In this document: positions 14,980 to 29,601 of the stretch, piece after piece
How the letters are laid out: the number at the start of each line of letters is the position of its first letter
Position numbering within the stretch: position 1 is the first letter of the stretch
Assembly: GCA_964563935.1 (NCBI GenBank)
Contig: CAZLZE010000004.1
Span: 6,514 to 70,513 of the forward strand
Origin: an uncultured Phycisphaerae bacterium
GTDB lineage: Bacteria; Planctomycetota; Phycisphaerae; JAAYCJ01
Length of the DNA: 64,000 nt
Direction of reading: 5' to 3'
Position numbers and translations under genes: made by a program
Notes under the pieces: generated by a model
Database searches by the model: none
Told to the model about the DNA's origin: nothing
Seen by the model: only the letters and a program-made list of their open reading frames with translations

Positions 14980-15483
14980 ATGCAGTGTCCTTTTTGCAAG
15001 ACCGAAGATTCGCGGGTTATCGACACGCGCGTGACGGACGGCGGAAGCACGGTTCGTCGGCGACGCGAATGTGTCAAGTGTACCAAGCGATTCACCACGT
15101 ACGAACGGCCGGAAACGTCGATCCGGTTGATGGTGATCAAGAAAGACGGGTCGCGGGTCCCCTATGAACGGGGCAAAATTCTGATGGGGCTTCAAAAGGC
15201 GTGCTACAAAAGACCGGTGAGCGAGGATCGCCTCGAGAAACTGGTGGATCGGATCGAAGAGAAGATCCTGGCCGGGTTCGATCGCGAGGTACCAAGCAAG
15301 TTCATCGGCGAACAGGCGGCGTTGGCATTGCGGGATGTGGACGAGATCGCCTATGTGCGATTCGCCAGCGTCTACCGGGAATTCCGGGATCTCGGCGAGT
15401 TCATCGAGGAAGCCAGGGGCATCATGAACGGGCAGACTCGCGAAGTTCCGGGCCAGACAAAGCTCTTTGAAGAAAACGAATAG
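14980..15483 (+). CDS. nrdR: transcriptional repressor NrdR (zinc ribbon + ATP-cone)
   Basis: 'MQCPFCKTEDSRVIDTR...CVKCTKRFTTYERPE' zinc ribbon followed by an ATP-cone, 167 aa. Confidence 0.9.
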   Translation: MQCPFCKTEDSRVIDTRVTDGGSTVRRRRECVKCTKRFTTYERPETSIRLMVIKKDGSRVPYERGKILMGLQKACYKRPVSEDRLEKLVDRIEEKILAGFDREVPSKFIGEQAALALRDVDEIAYVRFASVYREFRDLGEFIEEARGIMNGQTREVPGQTKLFEENE

Positions 15484-15488
15484 ACACG

Positions 15489-15575
15489 GCGGTTGAGCCA
15501 GACGGTATCAGCTTTGGAGAGGAAGAGCCATTTGGGAGAACGTTCTGCTCTAAAGCTGATAGCGGTTGGCTCAAG
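15489..15575 (+). repeat. long imperfect hairpin (21/23 bp stem) just after the nrdR stop, containing the AGCTGATAGC-type motif
   Basis: TTGAGCCAGACGGTATCAGCTTT...AAAGCTGATAGCGGTTGGCTCAA. The loop itself contains GAACGTTC and AGAGC/GCTCT sub-hairpins. Confidence 0.5.
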
Positions 15576-15915
15576 ACGGAGCGAAACCAAGACACCATCG
15601 CCAAACGACGGATCGGAAGTAGCCACGGCTGGATGGTGTCGCGACGGGAGCGAATCTTTGGTGGTTGGCATGACAGTCAACGCGAAAGGTTCGCTCCCTT
15701 TTTATGACAAGCGCACGCCATACCCCCTTCTACCGCAAGAGACTCCTCTAAAGTCCAATAGGTGTCGGCCCGATGATGTTCGATATAGATCGCCCGCAAC
15801 GCCAGTGTTCACGGTATTATGCATATGGCATTTCGACTGCCCGGCCGATAGAATATTGACATGGAATCGACCGCATGAGACGACACGGGTGATCCCACAG
15901 AGGATCTGCAGACGT

Positions 15916-16497
15916 ATGTCCGATACAATCGACGAAAACCAGTTCGCCATAGAAACCGTGCAGGACAATCCGAAGCTTGGACAGGTCCTCATCACACGGA
16001 CGCAGATCGCCCAGCGGGTGAAAGAACTGGCGGACGAAATCATGCGAACGTATGACCAGAACGAGCAGCCCGAGTTGCTGATCGTGGCGATCATGACCGG
16101 ATCGCTGATCTTCCTGGCCGACCTGGTCCGGGCCCTGCCGCTTCCCCTCCGAATCGCAATCATGGTTGTCAGCAACTATCCCGGAGCCACGACCCAGGCC
16201 AAGGGAGTCCAGATCAATTACGACCTAAAAGAAGATATCCGGGGTAAAAATGTGCTGGTGGTGGACGACATCCTGGATACAGGTCAAACCCTGTCGGCCG
16301 TAGTGGATGTAATCCGGCAGCGAGGCGCCGGCTCGGTCCGAACGTGCGTTCTTCTGGATAAACTCCTGGGAACCCCGAAGCAGTTGTCGCCCGATTTCGT
16401 CGGGTTCCAGATCCCGAACAAATTCGTGGTCGGTTACGGACTGGACTACGATAATCTATATCGCAACTATCCGCAAATCGCGGTATTGGAAGCATAA
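15916..16497 (+). CDS. hpt: hypoxanthine-guanine phosphoribosyltransferase
   Basis: PRPP-binding motif 'VLVVDDILDTGQTL', 193 aa starting from the internal ATG at 15916. The longer ORF upstream (from 15493) has no protein-like features. Confidence 0.8.
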   Translation: MSDTIDENQFAIETVQDNPKLGQVLITRTQIAQRVKELADEIMRTYDQNEQPELLIVAIMTGSLIFLADLVRALPLPLRIAIMVVSNYPGATTQAKGVQINYDLKEDIRGKNVLVVDDILDTGQTLSAVVDVIRQRGAGSVRTCVLLDKLLGTPKQLSPDFVGFQIPNKFVVGYGLDYDNLYRNYPQIAVLEA

Positions 16498-17132
16498 TGG
16501 CTGAAGAAACACTCCCCAAAAGGGAAGACAAAGTGGTTAGTGACCATTGCCGGATTCATCCCGAGCCCTTCCGGGTTGGGGCCGGTCAGGCAACGATCGC
16601 GGGATCGCTATCCGGCGTGGTTCCCGCGCATTTGGTGGAAGAGGGCGAACAGATTATCTTCGCGATCAAGCCGTCGATCTGGTTCATCGTCTTCTACTCC
16701 GCCAAGGTGGTCGTACTGGTGATGGCCATTCTTGTCGCCGTCCTGAACGCTCTGAAATATTTCCCCGACGCCTCCGGATGGCGGGCGTACGCCATACAGA
16801 TCGCGGCTGCGATCATTTTTCTGCAATTGGTCGTCGCGGTTCTCGAATGGGTGAGCCGGCTGTACGTCTTGACTGATCGGCGGGTGATTCGGATCAAAGG
16901 AGTCTTCAATATTGACGTTTTTGAGGCCCCCCTCGTCAAAATCCAGAACACGTATCTGACCTTCGCGCTGCACGAGCGCGTGGTGGCGATAGGTACGATC
17001 TTGTTCGCCACGGCGGGAACAGCGGGAATTGACGTGAGCTGGCAGAATATCAACCAACCTCTGGAAATCCATGAGCGTCTGCGGGCGGCGATTCGGGAAG
17101 CTCACCGCCGCTGGCCCAGCGGCTCGCCATAG
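16497..17132 (+). CDS. bacterial PH-domain (bPH_2/YdbS-like) membrane protein
   Basis: Two TM helices followed by 'LTDRRVIRIKGVFNIDVFEAPLVKIQNTYLTF'. Start codon overlaps the hpt stop (TAATG). Confidence 0.55.
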   Translation: MAEETLPKREDKVVSDHCRIHPEPFRVGAGQATIAGSLSGVVPAHLVEEGEQIIFAIKPSIWFIVFYSAKVVVLVMAILVAVLNALKYFPDASGWRAYAIQIAAAIIFLQLVVAVLEWVSRLYVLTDRRVIRIKGVFNIDVFEAPLVKIQNTYLTFALHERVVAIGTILFATAGTAGIDVSWQNINQPLEIHERLRAAIREAHRRWPSGSP

Positions 17133-17143
17133 CTCTGAAAAGA

Positions 17144-18049
17144 TTATTCGGGGGAAGAGATAGACGTCGCATCATCCCAGGACGCCTCCGCTTCCTCGGT
17201 ATTGGGATCCACGAAAATCGGGTAGTCAGCGCTGCGGGTTTCGGGGGCCACTCCAATCTTCAGGAGCTTCGGCGCGATGTAGTGTCGAACGAAGCTGTAG
17301 GTGGTTGCCGAGGTATGTCCCCCGTCGTTTCCAAGCTTCTCAAAACTGCTCCGCCACGGGATATTGATGACCTTCTCCTTGTACATTTCAATCGCGGCTC
17401 GAGTGGCCTTGGTGGGTGGATACAGACCCGCCAAGCCCGCCGGTTCGGTGAAGTATGCCCCGTCAATCGTCCCGGTTACCCGAACGAAACTCTTGAGGAT
17501 GGCATCGTGCGGCGAGTGGAGCACGTAGACCTTGTTCGTCACGTGCGATAGGCACCTGGTCATATCATACGTGGTCGACAGGCTGCTTCCCAGAAGCACA
17601 AGCGTATCGACCTGAAGTTCGGGTGGGAGATTCTCCACCGCCCAGACCCCAACGCCCGTACCGGCCGACAATCCAATGATGTAAACCGGCGTGTTAGGAT
17701 GCCGCTTGCGATAGTCGATAATCCGCTTGGTCAAACTTCGCGCCCGCAACCTCGCCTGTTCGCGGATAAGCTGGTCGCCCAAAGGACCGGTGTACGAGGT
17801 CCAGGAGAAATTCTCGATATCTCCTCGAAAACCCGCAGCCTTGAGGGCCTTGGGAACGGTTTCCTGCCCGAACCCCAGATTACCCGCGCCGTCCAGGTAG
17901 TAGACCTTTCCGTACCGCTCCCAGTAATTCGGGCGGTGTTCCTCGAAGGAGCTGGTGAATGCCTTGATAGGACGAGAGACGGTCCTGGCTACCCTGGAGC
18001 ATCCAGAGACGGCGAGGATCAACACCAACGCTAGCTTCATCCACTTCAT
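17144..18049 (-). CDS. alpha/beta-hydrolase-fold lipoprotein
   Basis: Lipoprotein signal 'LAVSGCS'. Nucleophile elbow 'GLSAGTG'. 301 aa. Confidence 0.5.
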   Translation of the reverse strand: MKWMKLALVLILAVSGCSRVARTVSRPIKAFTSSFEEHRPNYWERYGKVYYLDGAGNLGFGQETVPKALKAAGFRGDIENFSWTSYTGPLGDQLIREQARLRARSLTKRIIDYRKRHPNTPVYIIGLSAGTGVGVWAVENLPPELQVDTLVLLGSSLSTTYDMTRCLSHVTNKVYVLHSPHDAILKSFVRVTGTIDGAYFTEPAGLAGLYPPTKATRAAIEMYKEKVINIPWRSSFEKLGNDGGHTSATTYSFVRHYIAPKLLKIGVAPETRSADYPIFVDPNTEEAEASWDDATSISSPE

Positions 18050-18129
18050 ACATCAGCCCTTAAATTCAGAATACTGTATTATAAATATTGTCTTTCGCAA
18101 AGGAAAGCACGTATGGTATTTTATACCCC

Positions 18130-19140
18130 ATGGAGATCTCACGACTACACCGGATGCTGCATCTGATTACTCTGTTGCGATCAGGGCGACGATACAGCGC
18201 CGGCGAGTTGGCCAGGCAACTGGAGGTCTCCCGACGCACGATCTTCCGCGACCTGAACATTCTGACGGCCGCGGGCATCCCCTACTATTTCGACGAAGAG
18301 ACGGGATCCTACACGATCCACGAAACTTTTTTTCTTCCCGCTATCAACCTGACGGTCGACGAGGCGATGGCGCTGCTCCTGGCGACGCGGAAGATGATCG
18401 GAAAAGTACCGCTCCCGCTGTTCCAACAGGTTTCGAGAGCGGCTATTAAAGTGGAGTCCTCTCTGCCGTCCGTGATCCAGGATCACTGCGGACCGACGAT
18501 CAATCGAATGGATGTACGCTGGCCGCCCACGGCGGACGACGAGGCCCTGGATGAAAAATTCCGCATCCTTCGCCAGGCCGTCGAACGCCAGCGGAAAGTG
18601 CGAATCCGATACGAGTCGCTTTACGAAGCCAGGAACCTCAATCCAGTGGGCACGACAATCGACACGTCCGTCAGTCCCTATCGAATGGTCTTCATTCATC
18701 GCGCGTGGTATGTGATCGGATTCAGCAGCCTGCACAACCAGGTACGGACGTTCAAGATGGCACGGATCGCCTCAATCGAGATAACACAAGAGATGTATGC
18801 GGACCGGCCGGACTTCTCGCTCGAGGAGTATCTGGGCGATGCATGGGTTATGATTCCGGAAGGCAAGTCCCACAAGGTGGAACTGCTCTTTAGTCCAATG
18901 GTGTCTCGCAACGTGGCGGAGGTGCGGTGGCACCGGACGCAGAAGTGTGAATTCCTCGACGACGGTTCGCTGCGGTACGAGGTGACGGTGGATGGACTGA
19001 ACGAAATTTCCTGGTGGGTGCTTGGATACGGCGATAAGGTCCGGGTGATGAAACCCAAGGCCCTGGCGGATAAAATTAAGTCAATGGCGGAAAAGATGGT
19101 CCAGTTATATACTCGAGATGACAATGCGAGCACTGGTTGA
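18130..19140 (+). CDS. WYL-domain transcriptional regulator (HTH + WYL + WCX)
   Basis: N-terminal HTH ('LHLITLLRSGRRYSAGELARQLEVSRRTIFRDLNIL'). Central WYL-like region ('RMVFIHRAWYVIGF'). About 336 aa from the ATG at 18130. The listed ORF begins with TTG at 18088. Confidence 0.7.
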   Translation: MEISRLHRMLHLITLLRSGRRYSAGELARQLEVSRRTIFRDLNILTAAGIPYYFDEETGSYTIHETFFLPAINLTVDEAMALLLATRKMIGKVPLPLFQQVSRAAIKVESSLPSVIQDHCGPTINRMDVRWPPTADDEALDEKFRILRQAVERQRKVRIRYESLYEARNLNPVGTTIDTSVSPYRMVFIHRAWYVIGFSSLHNQVRTFKMARIASIEITQEMYADRPDFSLEEYLGDAWVMIPEGKSHKVELLFSPMVSRNVAEVRWHRTQKCEFLDDGSLRYEVTVDGLNEISWWVLGYGDKVRVMKPKALADKIKSMAEKMVQLYTRDDNASTG

Positions 19141-19573
19141 GCGGGTCCATGAGGCGACGGTCACGGTGGACGCCAAGCCCGTTGGCCAAATCGGGCCGGG
19201 GCTGCTGGTCTACCTGGGCGTGGAGAAAGGCGACACGGACGCCGACGTGGAATATATTGTCGACAAAGTACGGTATCTGCGGATCTTTGAAGACCAAGCG
19301 GAGAAGATGAACCTGGATGTGTCTCAGAAAGGCGGAGGCGTGCTGGTGATTTCCGCGTTCACGCTGCAGGCGGACGCACGAAAAGGCCGCCGACCCTCGT
19401 TCGATAACGCCGCAAGCCCGGAAATGGCCAACACCCTGTATCAGAAAGTGGTTCGCGGACTGACGGAGTCGGGACTGACCGTCCAGACAGGTCAATTCCA
19501 GGCCAAAATGACAGTGACGGCGGTGAACGACGGTCCGATCTGCGTCCCGCTGGACTCAAAACGGTTATTCTGA
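19124..19573 (+). CDS. dtd: D-aminoacyl-tRNA deacylase
   Basis: 'MRALVERV...GQIGPGLLVYLGVEKGD...KMNLDV...SAFTLQADARKGRRPSF...NDGP' matches Dtd along its length. Overlaps the WYL gene 3' end by 17 nt. Confidence 0.85.
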   Translation: MRALVERVHEATVTVDAKPVGQIGPGLLVYLGVEKGDTDADVEYIVDKVRYLRIFEDQAEKMNLDVSQKGGGVLVISAFTLQADARKGRRPSFDNAASPEMANTLYQKVVRGLTESGLTVQTGQFQAKMTVTAVNDGPICVPLDSKRLF

Positions 19574-19596
19574 GCAACGTTGGTTGAGGTTGGTGT

Positions 19597-21108
19597 ATGC
19601 TTGAGCGACAAGATGCAGACTGGGGCCGCGATTACCCCGAGGTAAACTTGCCTTCCGAGGCGGACTTGCAAGCTCTGGACGCATTGCGGGAACTCATGCC
19701 GCAAACGAGCCCGGGCAAACGCACAGAAGAGGCCACGCGACGAGGACTGCTCCGGGATCTCGCCAACGCCTTTGACCCAAAAGGTGAAGGAATCGAGAAG
19801 AAAAGGATCAGCGATCTGAAAACCGTACTGGTCGCCTTTCGCGCGACCGCAACCGCGCTGGGACACGTTCTGGAACCTCAGCCGGAATGCACAACGCCGA
19901 TTTTGAAACTGCAGTTGTCCCAGTGTCGAATCGAGGGCTGTGGAAATCTGTCCCGGACCATGCCTCGCATCCCATTTGGCCTGTGCTTCCACGAGTGCCT
20001 CTGGCCGAACTCCATCTATTTTACGGATGTCACCTTCGGTTCGATGGCGGATTTCCATTACAGCGAGTTCCACGCGGAAGCCAAGTTCTACCTGGTCAAA
20101 TTCGAGGGGGATGCCGATTTCCGAGGCGTGCGGTTCTGCAAGGACGCGGAATTCTGCGGCAGCGAGTTTCGTGAAAGCGCCTCATTCTTCATGGCTGCGT
20201 TCCACGGGTGCGCCAATTTCTCCGGAACGCGGTTCGACGGATCAAACGAGTTCTTGCAGACTACTTTCAGCGGTCCCGTGGATTTTCGCGACGCCGATTT
20301 CGCGCAGCCGCTCGATCTTCGCAAAATAGAACATACGGACCAACTGACCTGGAACTTCCACAACGTGAAGTTCAACGGCAGCACGATCCTCGCCGGCCAT
20401 CTTCACATCAATAGCGAATCCCTGCACCGCTGGAAGTGGTTCCTGCCCGGATGGATAGGATTGATCCACGGGGACAGCAAGTGGCCTGTGTCGTTCATCG
20501 CCCTGGGTCAGACGATATGGCAGATATGGAGGGGAAGGGAACGAGTGGGGGATTTCATGAAACACTACCGCCGCCACTATCGCCACGCGAGAGAAGACAT
20601 GCTCGCCGCCTGCGAGCAGTACGGCGTCCTGGAGGCGAACGTAAGCGTCCAGCCGTACGCGGACTCCTGGGATACACGCGACTGGTGTCACTTCCGATAT
20701 CTTGACCTGCACCGGCGGACGCGAAGACGGTTATTCTGTCCTCAGCGATGGGCCAACTGGTTGTTCCTCAAGTGGTGCTTCGGGTACGGCGCGTATCCGA
20801 GGCATGTGTTGGTGGCCGGATTGGTAACGATCGTTCTTTTCGCCCTGGTGTATACCTTTTGGCTGCCGCAGCATCTCTGGACCTCCTGCGATCCGACCAT
20901 GCCCAACCACAACCTGGCGGTCGAAAACACATGGTACTATCGATTCGGTAACGCGATGTATTTCTCCGTAATCACATTCGCTACGGTCGGATACGGCGAC
21001 TGGCACCCGGTGCACTATGCCAAGCCCGTGGCCGCCATAGAGGGACTACTCGGCATCCTCATCATGTCCGTGTTTACGGTCTCATTCGCCCGGAAAATTC
21101 TCCGATAG
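19597..21108 (+). CDS. pentapeptide-repeat protein fused to a 2-TM potassium-channel pore domain
   Basis: Residues ~150-260 are tandem pentapeptide repeats (ADFRG/VRFCK/DAEFC...). The C-terminus has TM1, a pore helix with K+ selectivity filter 'TVGYGD', and TM2. Confidence 0.7.
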   Translation: MLERQDADWGRDYPEVNLPSEADLQALDALRELMPQTSPGKRTEEATRRGLLRDLANAFDPKGEGIEKKRISDLKTVLVAFRATATALGHVLEPQPECTTPILKLQLSQCRIEGCGNLSRTMPRIPFGLCFHECLWPNSIYFTDVTFGSMADFHYSEFHAEAKFYLVKFEGDADFRGVRFCKDAEFCGSEFRESASFFMAAFHGCANFSGTRFDGSNEFLQTTFSGPVDFRDADFAQPLDLRKIEHTDQLTWNFHNVKFNGSTILAGHLHINSESLHRWKWFLPGWIGLIHGDSKWPVSFIALGQTIWQIWRGRERVGDFMKHYRRHYRHAREDMLAACEQYGVLEANVSVQPYADSWDTRDWCHFRYLDLHRRTRRRLFCPQRWANWLFLKWCFGYGAYPRHVLVAGLVTIVLFALVYTFWLPQHLWTSCDPTMPNHNLAVENTWYYRFGNAMYFSVITFATVGYGDWHPVHYAKPVAAIEGLLGILIMSVFTVSFARKILR

Positions 21109-21265
21109 GAGAACAAATGAAGCGGAAATACGCAAAGAAGGCACGGCAAAGCATGGGATCACCGTGGCATCTGAATCCGTTTCCGACGGTCGTTATTTTT
21201 TATTTGCAGGGTCTGTGAAGGTAATGTATTATTTTTGAATACAGAAATCTAGAGAGGGCATTCCA

Positions 21266-23416
21266 ATGACAAACGTTTGTTCTGCGCCAAAGACGCCATT
21301 ACTTCACGGGGACATGGACACGTTACTCTCTCGGGAATGGTTGATTTCAAACAAACTTGGGAGCTACGCTTCGTCCACGGTTCTCAACTGCAACACCCGC
21401 CGCTATCACGGAATGATGATCTCAGCCAACATTCCGCCGCTCGGCCGTGTCGTCACCGTAAGCAACTTCCTCGAACGGTTGATCATCGACGGCGTTGAAC
21501 ATCAGTTGAGCAATTTCGAATTCAACGGCGCCATTCATCCGCATGGATTCCAGTCGCAGACGTCGTTCCAACGCCAGAGCGAGGACGATCTGTCCAGCGT
21601 TTCGTTTGTGTACCAGGTGGACGACGTGACGTTCATTCGCACGCTGTGGCTGTTCGCCGACCATAATACGGCACTGGCCTACTGGCTGGCGGTCGATGGC
21701 AAAGGAATACGTCCGCTCCGCCTTTGCGTCCACCCCCTTCTGGCCATGCGAGACTTCCACATGCTGCGAAGGCAATCGGCGGGCAATCCGTTCAGCATGA
21801 AGCAGGAAAATCAGACGATAAGCGTGAAAGTCCCCGCCTTCGGTCCGGACAAGATGAACAAGTTCTACGGACTGTACCTGACCCCGACCGGTCTTCGCGG
21901 ACCGGTAAAGACCGATTTCACCTCCATGCCCGACTGGTGGTATAACTTCCGCTACCGGGTGGAAGCTGAGCGAGGCCAGGACTGCGGTGAAGACATCTTC
22001 ATGCCCGGGTTCTTCGAACTTCAGGGCCAAGGCCGAGTGGGATACGGACTCTGGCTGGACACCGAAGGACTCAGTCACGGCGAATTGGACAAGCTGCTGA
22101 CAAAAGTCAACTACCATCTGCAGTCAGCCCAGGGACCGCTGACCATTGTGGAAGAAGTCTCATCGACGCTGGCGCCATCGGTAGACAGTACAAGCGATAA
22201 TCCCTTGAATGAACCTGTGGAAACGACGCTTCGCAAGGCGGCCACGCAGTTCGTCGTGCGACGCAAGGACCTTAAGGGCAAGGACCGGTGGACCATCCTG
22301 GCCGGGTTCCCCTGGTTCGGTGACTGGGGACGGGACACGTTCATCTCCCTGCCCGGACTGCTGCTTGCCACGGGACGATACGAACAGGCGCTCGATTGCC
22401 TCCTGCTGTTCGGATCGGCGGAATCGGACGGCTTGATTCCGAATCGATTCGATGACTACGGCGGCGAACCGGAATACAACACGGTCGATGCCTCCTTGTG
22501 GTACATCTACGCCGTGGACGAGTACCTTCGCACAAGTGGAGACACCGAGAGTTGGAAGAAACACCTCCAGAAAATATGCCTGGCAATCATCGACAACTAC
22601 ATCGCGGGGACGCGGTACGGAATCAAGGTCGACGCGAGTGACGGACTGGTCTTCGCCGGCGATAGTCAGACCCAATTGACCTGGATGGACGCCCGGTGCG
22701 GAAACATATCCTTCACGCCCCGATGGGGAAAACCGGTCGAAATCAACGCCCTGTGGTACAACGCCCTGAAAATCGTGGCCGAGCGACTCGATAGCCGCAA
22801 GAAGAAAAAATCGCAGGAATTGACCGAATTGGCGGAAAAAGTGGCGGAAAGCTTCCAGACCAGGTTCTGGTACCGCGACGGTCAATATCTGTACGACTGC
22901 GTCCGGGACGACTTTAGCGATCCCACGATCCGCCCCAACCAAATCTATGCCGTAAGCCTGCGACATAGCCCGCTGCGAAAGGATCAGCAGCGACTGGTGG
23001 TCGACTGCGTACAGCGGAACCTCCTGACTCCCTTCGGCTTGAGAACACTGAACCCGGCGAACCCGGCCTACAAAGGCATGTGCACCGGCGACCAGTTCCA
23101 GCGGGACAGCGCCTATCACCAGGGAACGGTTTGGGCGTACCTGATGGGACCGTTCATCGAAGCATATCTCAAGGTCAACGATTATTCCATGACGGCGGGC
23201 ACCCTCGCCCGTGATTTCATGAAACCCTTGCTAGGCCACTTGTATGAAGCGGGGATCGGATCAATCAGCGAAATATTCGACGGCAATGAACCCCACAAGC
23301 CGCGAGGATGCATCGCCCAGGCGTGGTCCATCGCTGAAATCATCCGAACCCAATTGGCGATTCGGCAATGCCAGGAGCATAAACTCTCGTCCGAGACGCC
23401 GGTACAAAATCTGTAA
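21266..23416 (+). CDS. glycogen debranching enzyme (archaeal-type GDE; amylo-alpha-1,6-glucosidase family)
   Basis: N-terminal 'EWLISNKLGSYASSTV...TRRYHG' and a C-terminal (alpha/alpha)6 GDE_C-like region, 716 aa. Confidence 0.75.
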   Translation: MTNVCSAPKTPLLHGDMDTLLSREWLISNKLGSYASSTVLNCNTRRYHGMMISANIPPLGRVVTVSNFLERLIIDGVEHQLSNFEFNGAIHPHGFQSQTSFQRQSEDDLSSVSFVYQVDDVTFIRTLWLFADHNTALAYWLAVDGKGIRPLRLCVHPLLAMRDFHMLRRQSAGNPFSMKQENQTISVKVPAFGPDKMNKFYGLYLTPTGLRGPVKTDFTSMPDWWYNFRYRVEAERGQDCGEDIFMPGFFELQGQGRVGYGLWLDTEGLSHGELDKLLTKVNYHLQSAQGPLTIVEEVSSTLAPSVDSTSDNPLNEPVETTLRKAATQFVVRRKDLKGKDRWTILAGFPWFGDWGRDTFISLPGLLLATGRYEQALDCLLLFGSAESDGLIPNRFDDYGGEPEYNTVDASLWYIYAVDEYLRTSGDTESWKKHLQKICLAIIDNYIAGTRYGIKVDASDGLVFAGDSQTQLTWMDARCGNISFTPRWGKPVEINALWYNALKIVAERLDSRKKKKSQELTELAEKVAESFQTRFWYRDGQYLYDCVRDDFSDPTIRPNQIYAVSLRHSPLRKDQQRLVVDCVQRNLLTPFGLRTLNPANPAYKGMCTGDQFQRDSAYHQGTVWAYLMGPFIEAYLKVNDYSMTAGTLARDFMKPLLGHLYEAGIGSISEIFDGNEPHKPRGCIAQAWSIAEIIRTQLAIRQCQEHKLSSETPVQNL

Positions 23417-23459: not shown

Positions 23460-24305
23460 TCAGTTCAGGACAAGGACCTCAAGCCCATACAGAGGCAGAT
23501 TCGTGACCATGCAAATCCGAACGGCGGACGGACCAATCTCAACCAACCGTGCCTCCGGAATCTGGTTCAACCATCCGGCGTAATCAAGCCGTGAGAGTCG
23601 TGTGGGCCGGATCGGCAATCGCCCCACCTCCACATCCAAGCTGAACATTGTGCTCGAACTGATATTCTGAACACTCAGAATGATTCCTCGCGGCGTATCC
23701 GTTCGCGTTGGAAGAACGGGGACACTTCCACCGACGAACATATCGACATGACCTCTCCCCAGCCACCTGAGAGTCTCGTACAGAAGCGCCTTTCGCCGCC
23801 GAAGCGGATAGTTCACGCCGCAAAAGCAGACCGCAGGATCGCCCGCCACAGGCAGAATGGCGACTCGTCCACCCAGATCGTTCTCGTACCAGATCAGACC
23901 AGGACAGATCGCCCTGCCATATTCGTTAAGAACTTCAGTTATTACCGTACATTCCTTCACCGGACGATGGCAGACATACCTGTCCGAACCCGCCGAATCA
24001 ACTGGCACCTGTTCCCCAACAAAACAGAGTCCCCCATGCACGACTTCCTCGGCGGTCGGCGTCCCATACGCCTCAATGTCCAATATTTCCCGCGTTCTCA
24101 AGCCGATGGCTGCGCCAAAACCCCGATCAATCAAAATACCGGCCGATTCCGCATCCAGAAGCATCCCTCCGGCAAGCATTTTGAGGATTCTGGACTCATC
24201 GACGTAACCCAGCATATCGCCCGCTGCGAAACGGACTTCGGCATCGCAGCAGGTGACCGGTACCCCGCATTTCATGATTGAAGAAACAGCGTCGAAGGGG
24301 TCCAT
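23460..24305 (-). CDS. hypothetical protein
   Basis: Long minus-strand ORF (344 aa from 24494) with no recognised motif. Start chosen at the internal Met. Overlapping plus-strand ORFs are shorter. Confidence 0.3.
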   Translation of the reverse strand: MDPFDAVSSIMKCGVPVTCCDAEVRFAAGDMLGYVDESRILKMLAGGMLLDAESAGILIDRGFGAAIGLRTREILDIEAYGTPTAEEVVHGGLCFVGEQVPVDSAGSDRYVCHRPVKECTVITEVLNEYGRAICPGLIWYENDLGGRVAILPVAGDPAVCFCGVNYPLRRRKALLYETLRWLGRGHVDMFVGGSVPVLPTRTDTPRGIILSVQNISSSTMFSLDVEVGRLPIRPTRLSRLDYAGWLNQIPEARLVEIGPSAVRICMVTNLPLYGLEVLVLN

Positions 24306-24551
24306 CGGCGAAGCCGATATATGCGACACAACGCCGATCCCCCGGTCTTGCCGTTCCCCCGATAGCAGTCTCTTTAGACCGCGAAAAAACGGCCTGGAGT
24401 CCCTAAGCCGTTTTCCTTGCGTCCGATCACTTGCCGGATGAAGCTCGTTCGACCACTTTCCCGCATCGGCATCAACCATCATTCCACTCCTCAAGATTGT
24501 TCCGTAATTATATCCCGAGAGTGGAAGATAGTTCCCGAACGCTCGAACCCG

Positions 24552-29529: not shown

Positions 29530-29601
29530 GCCGATGTAGCTCAATGGCAGAGCACGGCTTTCGTAAAGCCGGGGTTGTGGGTTCAACTCCCACCATCGGC
29601 T
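29530..29601 (+). tRNA. tRNA-Thr (anticodon CGU)
   Basis: Cloverleaf folded by hand. Acceptor GCCGATG/CATCGGC. D-arm GCTC-AATGGCA-GAGC. Anticodon arm CGGCT-TTCGTAA-AGCCG (anticodon CGT). T-arm GTGGG-TTCAACT-CCCAC. CCA not encoded. Confidence 0.8.

Follow-up and report, generated by a model that had tools for sequence, protein, structure and literature searches.

The window, by which we mean the whole 64-kb stretch of Phycisphaerae DNA analysed here, contains a compact run of same-strand genes encoding a WYL-domain regulator, a D-aminoacyl-tRNA deacylase (dtd) and a pentapeptide-repeat K+ channel (Table 1). An earlier note on this DNA had placed the three genes where we list them, and their Pfam domains and translations agree with that placement. 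The regulator and dtd genes overlap by the 17 nt that the note had reported, dtd starting at an orthologue-supported ATG (19124) ahead of the regulator stop codon (19138-19140), and the 23-nt gap from the dtd stop to the channel ATG is likewise correct. A further 8 nt separate the channel gene from a 33-codon ORF, 3′ of which a gene for a glycogen-debranching enzyme starts at 21266. On the other side of the regulator, a divergent gene encodes a predicted lipoprotein with no Pfam match; its homologue at locus L139 has a weak Abhydrolase_8 match. This gene is syntenic with the regulator gene in the nearest relatives only (L003 and L054 by tblastn; the genes of L138 and L139 are arranged likewise). 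No Rfam match was found in the locus.

Table 1. Features of the regulator-dtd-channel locus, in window coordinates.
Feature	Position	Strand	Basis
Divergent gene, predicted lipoprotein (signal peptide + Cys lipobox)	17144..18049	-	translation
Extended -10-like element TGGTATTTT (TGnTAnnnT)	18114..18122	+	layout common to relatives
HTH-WYL-WCX transcription regulator, DriD/PafBC-like, 336 aa	18130..19140	+	Pfam, profile vs PDB, AlphaFold/Foldseek
dtd, D-aminoacyl-tRNA deacylase, 149 aa	19124..19573	+	Pfam, TIGR00256, motif survey
Pentapeptide-repeat K+ channel, 503 aa	19597..21108	+	Pfam, model
33-codon ORF, most likely non-coding	21117..21218	+	composition, terminator-like site inside
Terminator-like hairpin, weak, CCGTTTCCGACGG then T-run	21177..21204	+	

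The dtd product matches Pfam Tyr_Deacylase (E 1.6e-50) and, over residues 1-145, scores 163 bits with TIGR00256, whose trusted cut-off is 101.5. Its signature motifs read SAFTL and NDGPIC rather than SQFTL and NxGPVT, with the Gly-Pro kept, and a motif survey found this variant to be clade-wide in Phycisphaerae. As read from these matches, the protein is best explained as an ordinary chiral-proofreading deacylase. In other phyla, dtd is a housekeeping gene.

The WYL regulator and its relatives

The start of the regulator, ATG 18130, matches the N-termini of 50 orthologues. Pfam recognises HTH_11/HTH_PafC (residues 5-108), WYL (143-218; E 6e-16) and WCX (248-324; E 1e-17), and the corresponding DNA segments are the wHTH at about 18151-18282, WYL at 18556-18783 and WCX at 18871-19101. 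When a profile was compared with the PDB, it matched over the full length, best with PafBC (6sj9, E 2e-24) and then with DriD at E 1e-20. The best Foldseek match of the AlphaFold model (pLDDT 85.5) was DriD (8tp8, E 4e-20, TM 0.60-0.65), aligned over 334 columns, and the domain order of wHTH, helical bundle, WYL (an Sm-like barrel) and WCX is that of the DriD/PafBC type.

In Caulobacter crescentus, the WYL protein DriD activates a response to DNA damage that is independent of SOS. Our regulator is only about 20% identical to DriD, but shares the wHTH, three-helix bundle, WYL and WCX domains across its full length, together with the Arg-x3-Arg pair that reads bases. R36 and R40, which are invariant across 51 orthologues, align with DriD R37 and R41, which read the G in GAC/GTC half-sites (PMC10853764), and in the DriD/PafBC type the recognition-helix arginines i and i+4 read the guanines of the GTC/GAC triplet (PMC10853764, PMC8635444). 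Like DriD, the regulator is encoded by a single gene, consistent with a homodimer, and a homodimer is probably what it forms. Of ten residues that contact ssDNA in DriD (PMC10853764), six (Y161, R191, Y194, R206, F208 and K209) are kept in the alignment or exchanged conservatively, whereas the intercalating Tyr240 of DriD and its WCX residue Arg288 are not conserved, the regulator having Pro243 and Asn291 there; its ligand may therefore differ from that of DriD.

The best profile match, PafBC, is an actinobacterial DNA-damage activator that works by sigma adaptation. It is a heterodimer or a fusion of two paralogues, with a non-palindromic motif and a link to the Pup-proteasome locus, whereas here we find one gene and a palindromic site. 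BrxR and CapW, defence-associated WYL repressors, share the HTH-WYL-WCX fold (Foldseek E about 1e-10), but their likeness to the regulator is far weaker (TM about 0.35, compared with 0.6 for DriD), and neither BREX nor CBASS nor any other defence genes lie in its vicinity. The link between WYL regulator and defence that the earlier note had raised was not borne out, as PADLOC returned nothing beyond generic WYL/Cas3c-N matches for the regulator, and no match for dtd, the channel or the neighbouring genes. Because the regulator is closest to DriD and PafBC and keeps the base-reading arginine pair, it is, to the extent that sequence and fold can tell, most likely a DriD-like, nucleic-acid-sensing activator, with dtd as its ancestral operon partner.

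Pairing with dtd and the palindrome upstream

In 42 of the 65 metagenome loci with enough downstream DNA, dtd comes directly after the WYL orthologue and is read in the same direction; the pair is present in five of the seven nearest relatives, and a WYL gene lies upstream of dtd in 5 of 14 Planctomycetota dtd loci, counts which overstate the independent events because the loci are phylogenetically related. The flanks of dtd loci from other phyla contained no WYL match. The two genes are still adjacent where regulator identity is as low as 40-45%, flanking genes being otherwise scrambled in the phylum, and the junctions are frequently -6 to +25 nt, which leaves dtd no intergenic space in which a separate promoter could lie. 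The link is not obligatory, since about one third of the orthologues (23/65) have lost the dtd neighbour; downstream genes are variable at these loci, and we found no alternative conserved partner there. There is also no conserved third gene after dtd, the downstream neighbours differing at every locus, close relatives included. These comparisons support the view that the WYL and dtd genes are a real, conserved, overlapping pair in Phycisphaerae.

A palindrome, GTGACA-N6-TGTCAC, is found in 34 of 80 orthologue upstream regions (with at most 2 mismatches in 12), mostly 25-41 nt 5′ of the WYL ATG, and in the examples listed it is followed by a constant 10 nt and then by a -10-like (G/T)ATAA(T/G). 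Across 973 kb there are 36 sites with no more than one mismatch, and 32 of them stand upstream of a WYL start at a distance of at most 130 nt. In its position over the -35 region, such a palindrome could serve a repressor just as it could an activator. At palindrome loci with enough downstream DNA (n = 26), dtd was present in 25 and absent from one, against 18 present and 21 absent at loci without the palindrome; with dtd kept at 25 of these 26 loci, its expression there is mechanically subject to the palindrome promoter.

The palindrome occupies -40 to -23 of a promoter that has a -10 and no properly spaced -35, an arrangement in which binding would activate the operon. DriD- and PafBC-dependent promoters are also without a properly spaced -35 (PMC13004042, PMC8635444). 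The site used by DriD, ATACGAC-N7-GTCGTAT, keeps a constant distance to the -10 and overlaps with the -35 position (PMC13004042); it resembles the Phycisphaerae site in being a GAC...GTC pseudo-palindrome, also found at the regulator's own promoter (PMC10853764, PMC13004042), and differs from it in half-site spacing (GAC-N7-GTC against GAC-N8-GTC). Furthermore, the promoters that these papers name as regulated by DriD, namely didA, bapE, dnaG, recJ and CCNA_03891/01149, do not include that of dtd (PMC10853764, PMC13004042). PafBC promoters share the geometry, with a GTC-containing -26 element spanning -28 to -23, a canonical -10 and no -35 (PMC8635444), and the TGTCAC half-site of the palindrome falls exactly at the position of that element.

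The regulator might instead be an autorepressor of the BrxR/CapW type, whose palindromic operator occludes the promoter until a ligand derepresses WYL and dtd. We consider this unlikely. The palindrome does overlap the core promoter region, BrxR and CapW are structural relatives that act as repressors, and the upstream half-site GTGACA resembles TTGACA; however, GTGACA is 22 nt from the -10, which is too far for it to act as a -35, and the fixed 10-nt register to the -10 is the PafBC -26 geometry. The sequence and fold of the regulator, moreover, are clearly nearer to those of DriD and PafBC, which are activators. Activation by a DriD/PafBC-type regulator is thus the reading that we prefer for the palindrome loci.

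At the window's own WYL promoter the palindrome is absent, so that, unlike driD, this regulator gene has lost the site from its promoter, and the DriD/PafBC-type arrangement over -35/-26 in fixed register to the -10 is present in relatives and absent here. There is no convincing palindrome in the 64 kb either: GTGACA-N6-TGTCAC (up to two mismatches), TGACA-N6-TGTCA (up to one) and GAC-N8-GTC all occur at chance level, and the best two matches (11844 and 10130) are inside coding DNA, so no regulon member can be named in the window. Given this absence from both the promoter and the 64 kb, control of dtd by the regulator is unsupported in the source organism. What the promoter region does contain is an extended -10 element, separated from the WYL ATG by 7 nt, which, if it serves as the promoter, as we infer, implies a leaderless or near-leaderless WYL mRNA. 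The TGnTAnnnT-N7-ATG layout is kept in the window and in L054, L003, L056 and L139. A short inverted repeat, GGTAT-TTT-ATACC (18115-18127), overlaps the element, which a sigma-70 scan did not flag because there is no -35.

Inherited synteny without regulatory meaning, in which dtd is a passenger and the real targets of the regulator lie elsewhere, is distinctly improbable in our view, as the adjacency survives to low regulator identity amid scrambled flanks, the tight junctions leave no room for a dtd promoter and dtd is kept at all but one of the palindrome loci. It draws some support from the dtd-less orthologues with their variable neighbours, from the missing operator at the window promoter, and from the housekeeping status of dtd in phyla where no WYL match lies beside it.

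The channel gene and the end of the unit

The channel gene has GAGG 7 nt before its ATG, and this start agrees with those of homologues. Its product matches Pentapeptide_3 (E 3.5e-17) and Ion_trans_2 (E 2e-12), which, together with the filter T463-V-G-Y-G-D468 encoded at 20983-21000, confirms the fusion of pentapeptide repeats to a 2-TM pore with a TVGYGD filter; throughout the family, T463, G465, G467 and D468 do not vary. In the AlphaFold model, which is confident for the monomer, N-terminal helices (residues 21-87) are followed by a β-solenoid of about 185 residues (~104-290; 19906-20466), where the earlier note had estimated ~110, and then by a helical linker (296-394), TM1 (401-422; 20797-20862), a pore helix (446-462) and TM2 (475-502; 21019-21102). 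In the solenoid, repeats of the A(D/N)LxX type stand in tandem and build up a right-handed quadrilateral β-helix.

TM1, pore helix, TVGYGD filter and TM2 are shared with the 2-TM K+ channels KcsA and KirBac, which Foldseek and phmmer match to the pore region only. In contrast to these, the channel has a cytosolic N-terminal part of about 400 residues, made up of a helical domain, the solenoid and a helical linker, and lacks a C-terminal domain, ending 6 residues after TM2. Sequence and model are best explained by a tetrameric 2-TM K+-selective pore, the solenoid presumably serving as a large N-terminal cytosolic domain for gating or for binding a partner. Qnr, MfpA and EfsQnr are soluble pentapeptide-repeat DNA mimics that act on gyrase, whereas the solenoid here is covalently fused to a membrane pore, and the likeness implies no function.

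The channel belongs to a family in which >100 of the top 150 representatives have the full architecture; the family profile gave 4884 matches at E<=1e-30, a number inflated by pentapeptide-only proteins, and we found no experimental description of the family. The GC and GC3 of the channel gene equal those of its neighbours, which argues that it is native to the genome and rules out a recent horizontal transfer. A location on mobile elements was also considered and rejected, as tblastn against plasmids matched pentapeptide regions only and phages gave no match.

In no other fetched locus, including those of the seven nearest relatives, does the channel gene adjoin dtd or WYL. Six channel-homologue contexts contain neither gene, and nothing in the window is homologous to the genes that follow dtd in L003 and L054. 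Judged by these loci, the channel gene is a one-off neighbour of the WYL-dtd pair from a widespread family. Of the three-gene operon proposed earlier, the WYL-dtd part, which recurs in relatives, stands, while membership of the channel does not, its juxtaposition being unique to this genome. Nevertheless, from the spacing, and with no terminator-like site 5′ of 21177, it is plausible that WYL, dtd and channel are on one transcript.

The 33-codon ORF, which has GGAGAA just upstream, had been put forward as a coupled small peptide. With a GC of 0.48 and a GC3 of 0.56, compared with 0.70-0.72 for GC3 in every neighbouring gene, its composition is non-coding, and its 3′ third is the terminator-like hairpin and T-run (21177-21189 onward). 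It has no Pfam match and no homologous locus exists. By its composition and the terminator-like site inside it, the ORF is most likely non-coding, and the peptide proposal is not supported. The hairpin is possibly the end of the transcription unit. An intrinsic terminator and a structured RNA 3′ of the channel gene were both considered and rejected, there being only this weak hairpin in a region that folds no better than shuffles (z = -0.61). Since the region is not unusually structured, read-through into the debranching-enzyme gene may occur.

That WYL, dtd, channel and a coupled peptide form one stress or defence module under ligand-gated control is largely refuted by the neighbourhood data, and we regard it as very unlikely. 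The tight same-strand packing and the lack of a terminator-like site before 21177 are what such a module would have, WYL regulators control stress and defence operons (PMC10693628), and BrxR and CapW are among the regulator's Foldseek matches. However, the channel is absent from every other dtd/WYL locus, its homologues lie in unrelated contexts, PADLOC matched neither dtd nor the channel, and the ORF is of non-coding composition.

The channel architecture is topical because the Hailong effector, according to secondary descriptions, is a channel that is gated by DNA and bears a cytosolic crown. The partner protein HalB is a nucleotidyltransferase that makes inhibitory oligo-dA. A Hailong variant with pentapeptide repeats and a K+ channel domain has been described (PMC13586616). 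The anti-phage effector HalA is a tetrameric ion channel with a large cytosolic domain, which our channel resembles in architecture only. One could accordingly imagine a HalA-like, nucleic-acid-gated effector whose solenoid crown binds an oligonucleotide, sharing its signal with an ssDNA-sensing regulator. We give this little credence. No sequence link to HalA emerged, whichever query was used (whole protein, family profile, or solenoid and linker alone); the genes beside the channel are dtd and the debranching enzyme rather than a HalB-type nucleotidyltransferase, and none of the six channel-homologue contexts holds a nucleotidyltransferase.

Proposed regulation and its meaning for Phycisphaerae

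We propose, with a probability of roughly 0.6, that the locus derives from a Phycisphaerae-wide WYL-dtd bicistronic unit with a regulator of the DriD/PafBC type, behind which the channel gene stands in this lineage alone. The WYL domain would most likely sense single-stranded nucleic acid, and the regulator would most likely bind GTGACA-N6-TGTCAC in most orthologous loci, thereby activating, rather than repressing, its own operon and dtd with it. dtd would be translationally coupled to the regulator through the 17-nt overlap. In the window's subclade, where the palindrome is gone, WYL and dtd would be driven by the extended -10, placed for a leaderless transcript, and the targets of the regulator would for that reason lie elsewhere in the genome. 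Given the 23-nt gap and the lack of a terminator before it, the channel is probably co-transcribed with the pair, but would not be functionally tied to it.

A more elaborate circuit, which we think has only a slim chance of being correct, would have the WYL domain sense, in place of resected DNA, a signal of translation quality (such as the single-stranded 3′ end of a tRNA, or nucleic acid derived from aminoacyl-tRNA). The pair would then act as a self-contained sensor and effector of chiral proofreading, and a solenoid-gated K+ channel, perhaps responsive to nucleic acid as HalA is, would in this lineage have been recruited onto the transcript.

To our knowledge, work on regulators of the DriD/PafBC type has until now dealt with those of Alphaproteobacteria, Actinobacteria and Moraxellaceae. 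If our inference is true, Phycisphaerae carry one as well, with a defined candidate operator at -40 to -23, and the gene most constantly co-transcribed with it would be dtd, which encodes a translation-proofreading enzyme not previously tied to WYL regulators; in the literature searched, no paper mentioned both. The combination with the channel is a lineage-specific juxtaposition and not a module, while the pairing of WYL and dtd leads to the hypothesis that chiral proofreading is induced by stress.

Gene order in and around the locus

The regulator, dtd and channel genes are successive on the + strand, and their layout as given in the earlier note was confirmed by ORF listing and Pfam scans, with a gap of 23 nt between dtd and the channel, whose start is preceded by GAGG. 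The regulator begins at ATG 18130 rather than at the upstream TTG 18088, as the N-termini of 50 orthologues agree. The dtd product was identified by Pfam (1.6e-50) and TIGR00256 (163 bits, cut-off 101.5), and the T-V-G-Y-G-D filter of the channel is encoded at 20983-21000. No Rfam matches were found in or near the locus.

Features of the window (window coordinates)
Feature	Position	Strand	Remarks
Phosphoribosyltransferase (hpt-like), longest ORF, 334 aa	15493-16497	+	Pfam domain from residue 171
TGnTAnnnT element, TGGTATTTT	18114-18122		ends 7 nt before WYL ATG
HTH-WYL-WCX regulator	18130-19140	+	ORF listing and Pfam
dtd	start ATG 19124	+	start backed by orthologues; overlaps regulator stop by 17 nt
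Channel, 503 aa	19597-21108	+	Pentapeptide_3 and Ion_trans_2 domains (Pfam)
33-codon ORF	21117-21218		present in sequence
Terminator-like site	21177-21189 and following		sole such site in region
Promoter-like site for downstream debranching-enzyme gene	21203-21232
344-aa ORF	23460-24494	-	convergent with debranching-enzyme gene; no Pfam match
tRNA-Thr(CGT)	29530-29601	+	sole RNA gene detected in 64 kb

The 33-codon ORF had been proposed to encode a coupled peptide. Its GC3 is 0.56, versus 0.70-0.72 in all neighbouring genes, and its hydrophobic tail is encoded by the T-run of the terminator-like site; the region around it is not significantly structured (z = -0.61). On composition and tail the proposal was dropped, and the ORF, for which no homologous locus exists, is treated as putatively non-coding.

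Orthologues of the hpt-like protein are 186-194 aa long, and its translation probably begins at the ATG near 15961 (MSDTIDENQF...), which leaves about 470 nt between nrdR and this likely start. The 344-aa ORF, with a GC3 of 0.59 versus 0.70-0.73 in its neighbours, may be a wrong gene call or specific to this lineage.

The pentapeptide-repeat channel

Contrary to the earlier suggestion, the channel does not belong to one unit with WYL and dtd. No channel matches occur in the dtd-centred or WYL-centred loci, and neither a dtd nor a WYL gene was found in six channel-homologue contexts; the WYL-dtd-channel arrangement is unique to the window genome. The genes 3′ of dtd in the related loci L003 and L054 have no homologue within the 64-kb window. 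Since linkage is not conserved and the GC (0.571) and GC3 (0.716) of the channel gene are those of its neighbours, we conclude that it is native to the genome and was juxtaposed to dtd through local rearrangement.

The best non-identical homologue of the channel is just 38% identical. The members of a family alignment (n = 39) share one plan: helices at the N-terminus, A(D/N)F-type pentapeptide repeats that vary in number, a conserved helical module (ACEQYG...DWCHYRY...), a membrane-proximal CFGYG, and then TM1, pore helix, TVGYGD filter and TM2; the C-terminal end of the channel reads ...FARKI(I/L)R. AlphaFold gave a confident model (pLDDT 91.4, pTM 0.86). Searched against 1.84 billion representatives, the family profile gave 4884 matches at E<=1e-30, and over 100 of the 150 best run from solenoid to pore, so the architecture is widespread; a literature search found no experimental paper on it.

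[quoted passage not shown] The window channel shares the architecture alone: it has no sequence similarity to HalA, no nucleotidyltransferase neighbours it in the window or its homologues in the six contexts, and its filter is of the canonical K+ type. PADLOC found nothing on the channel. In L137 and the P0017 contig, two related loci, a DUF4416 gene lies directly 3′ of the channel homologue; in two other channel-homologue loci, a two-gene cassette of an AAA_15/AAA_21 ATPase and a DUF3226 protein lies between the channel and DUF4416 genes (L135, 6400-8039; L136, 1603-3242) and looks like a small defence-type insertion.

Conservation of the WYL-dtd pair

Of the operon put forward in the earlier note, what stands is WYL-dtd, which is a conserved gene pair; the channel and the peptide are not part of it. 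A scan of a genome collection yielded 51 dtd-centred loci, whose flanks were probed by tblastn with window proteins. A WYL orthologue lies directly 5′ of dtd in 5/14 Planctomycetota loci (L003, L004, L007, L009, L010), and no WYL matches were found in the flanks of dtd loci from other phyla. The regulator has 1756 homologues at E<=1e-10, and scanning metagenomes with an alignment of 51 sequences yielded 80 WYL-centred loci (41-71% identity). Dtd is immediately 3′ of WYL on the same strand in 42 of the 65 with >=450 nt of downstream DNA. Where both genes are present the junction is typically -6 to +25 nt; in dtd-less loci the downstream genes vary, and no substitute partner was found. The pair occurs in five of the seven nearest relatives (65-72% identity; L003, L007, L055, L139, L140) and is lacking in L054 and L138.

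The closest relative, L003 (dtd 78% identical), retains the entire upstream synteny nrdR-hpt-bPH-lipoprotein(-)-WYL-dtd. The block of nrdR, hpt, bPH-domain membrane protein and divergent lipoprotein (14980-18049) is syntenic with WYL in the nearest relatives (compared with L003 and L138); everything 3′ of the window dtd is rearranged relative to the same two loci.

In a survey of the window dtd (19124-19573) and the dtd genes of L003-L133, Phycisphaerae DTD signatures differ from SQFTL / NxGPVT, the canonical pair. The window gene has SAFTL / NDGPIC, and another type, which combines PNFTL or SNFTL with ADGPVN, predominates in the clade bearing the palindrome described below. Non-Planctomycetota loci are mostly canonical (SQFTL / NDGPVT in 29/45 unlinked dtd genes), and Gly-Pro is retained in all DTDs surveyed.

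A DriD-like regulator and its candidate operator

A profile search of PDB sequences matched the regulator to PafBC (6sj9, 2e-24) and full-length DriD (8tp8 and 9pfq, 1e-20). The best Foldseek matches of its AlphaFold model (pLDDT 85.5) were DriD-ssDNA-DNA complexes (E 4e-20, TM 0.60-0.65, 334 columns), followed by PafBC (1e-14), with CapW and BrxR far weaker (TM about 0.35). DriD binds ATACGAC-N7-GTCGTAT via Arg37 and Arg41, holds ssDNA in its WYL/WCX pocket and has a high-affinity site in its own promoter (PMC10853764). In the HMMER alignment these arginines correspond to R36/R40 of the window regulator, invariant in 51 orthologues. Six of ten ssDNA contacts are kept (Y161, R191, Y194, R206, F208 for Trp, K209 for Arg); Tyr240 and Arg288 have no conserved counterpart.

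When the regions upstream of WYL orthologues were printed, a palindrome, GTGACA-N6-TGTCAC, was seen. It is present (<=2/12 mismatches) in 34 of the 80 distinct regions, in most of them 25-41 nt ahead of the ATG; 34 is a lower bound because N7-spaced variants exist (e.g. L109). Bearers include L061, L067, L080, L081, L087, L089, L091, L092, L102, L103, L110, L117, L119, L122, L130, L131 and others. Exact copies appear a single time per locus, at this position only, and across 973 kb of fetched DNA 32/36 sites with <=1 mismatch are in the 130 nt that precede a WYL start. Dtd is present in 25/26 motif-bearing loci with downstream room versus 18/39 motif-less loci. An extra site lies 400-490 nt further upstream in L096, L102 and L127.

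In the examples read, a constant 10 nt separates the palindrome from a -10-like hexamer, (G/T)ATAA(T/G). Setting the hexamer at -12 to -7 puts TGTCAC at -28 to -23 and GTGACA at -40 to -35, and these promoters have no -35 hexamer at workable spacing. DriD sites overlap the missing -35 position and keep a constant distance to the -10 (PMC13004042), and PafB uses R46 and R50 to read a GTC triplet in a -26 element (-23 to -28) of promoters without a -35 (PMC8635444). The palindrome is a candidate operator of a Phycisphaerae DriD-like regulator. Repression rather than activation would also be compatible with the sequence; most likely, though, the regulator is a DriD-like activator that acts as a homodimer, senses nucleic acid and would positively autoregulate WYL-dtd in most Phycisphaerae.

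The palindrome is missing from the promoters of the window and several near relatives. Common to the window, L054, L003, L056 and L139 is the TGnTAnnnT element with its 7-nt spacing, whose layout is the geometry expected of an extended -10 driving a leaderless mRNA. Palindrome and half-site scans of the 64-kb window gave chance-level matches only, all inside genes, and control of dtd and the channel by the regulator in this organism is not supported. As its DNA-reading residues are intact, the window regulator is probably still able to recognise sites of this kind in other parts of the genome. In a subset of loci without the palindrome (L058, L060, L063, L064, L069, L084, L123), WYL lies directly behind a gene whose product has a HisA/HisF-like end (...GRALYEG.F.L.EAL...), which suggests a third promoter arrangement with WYL co-transcribed with the upstream gene.

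A DriD/PafBC-like promoter element and a WYL-dtd bicistron across Phycisphaerae would extend a known regulator class to a new phylum, with dtd as an unexpected partner gene for it.
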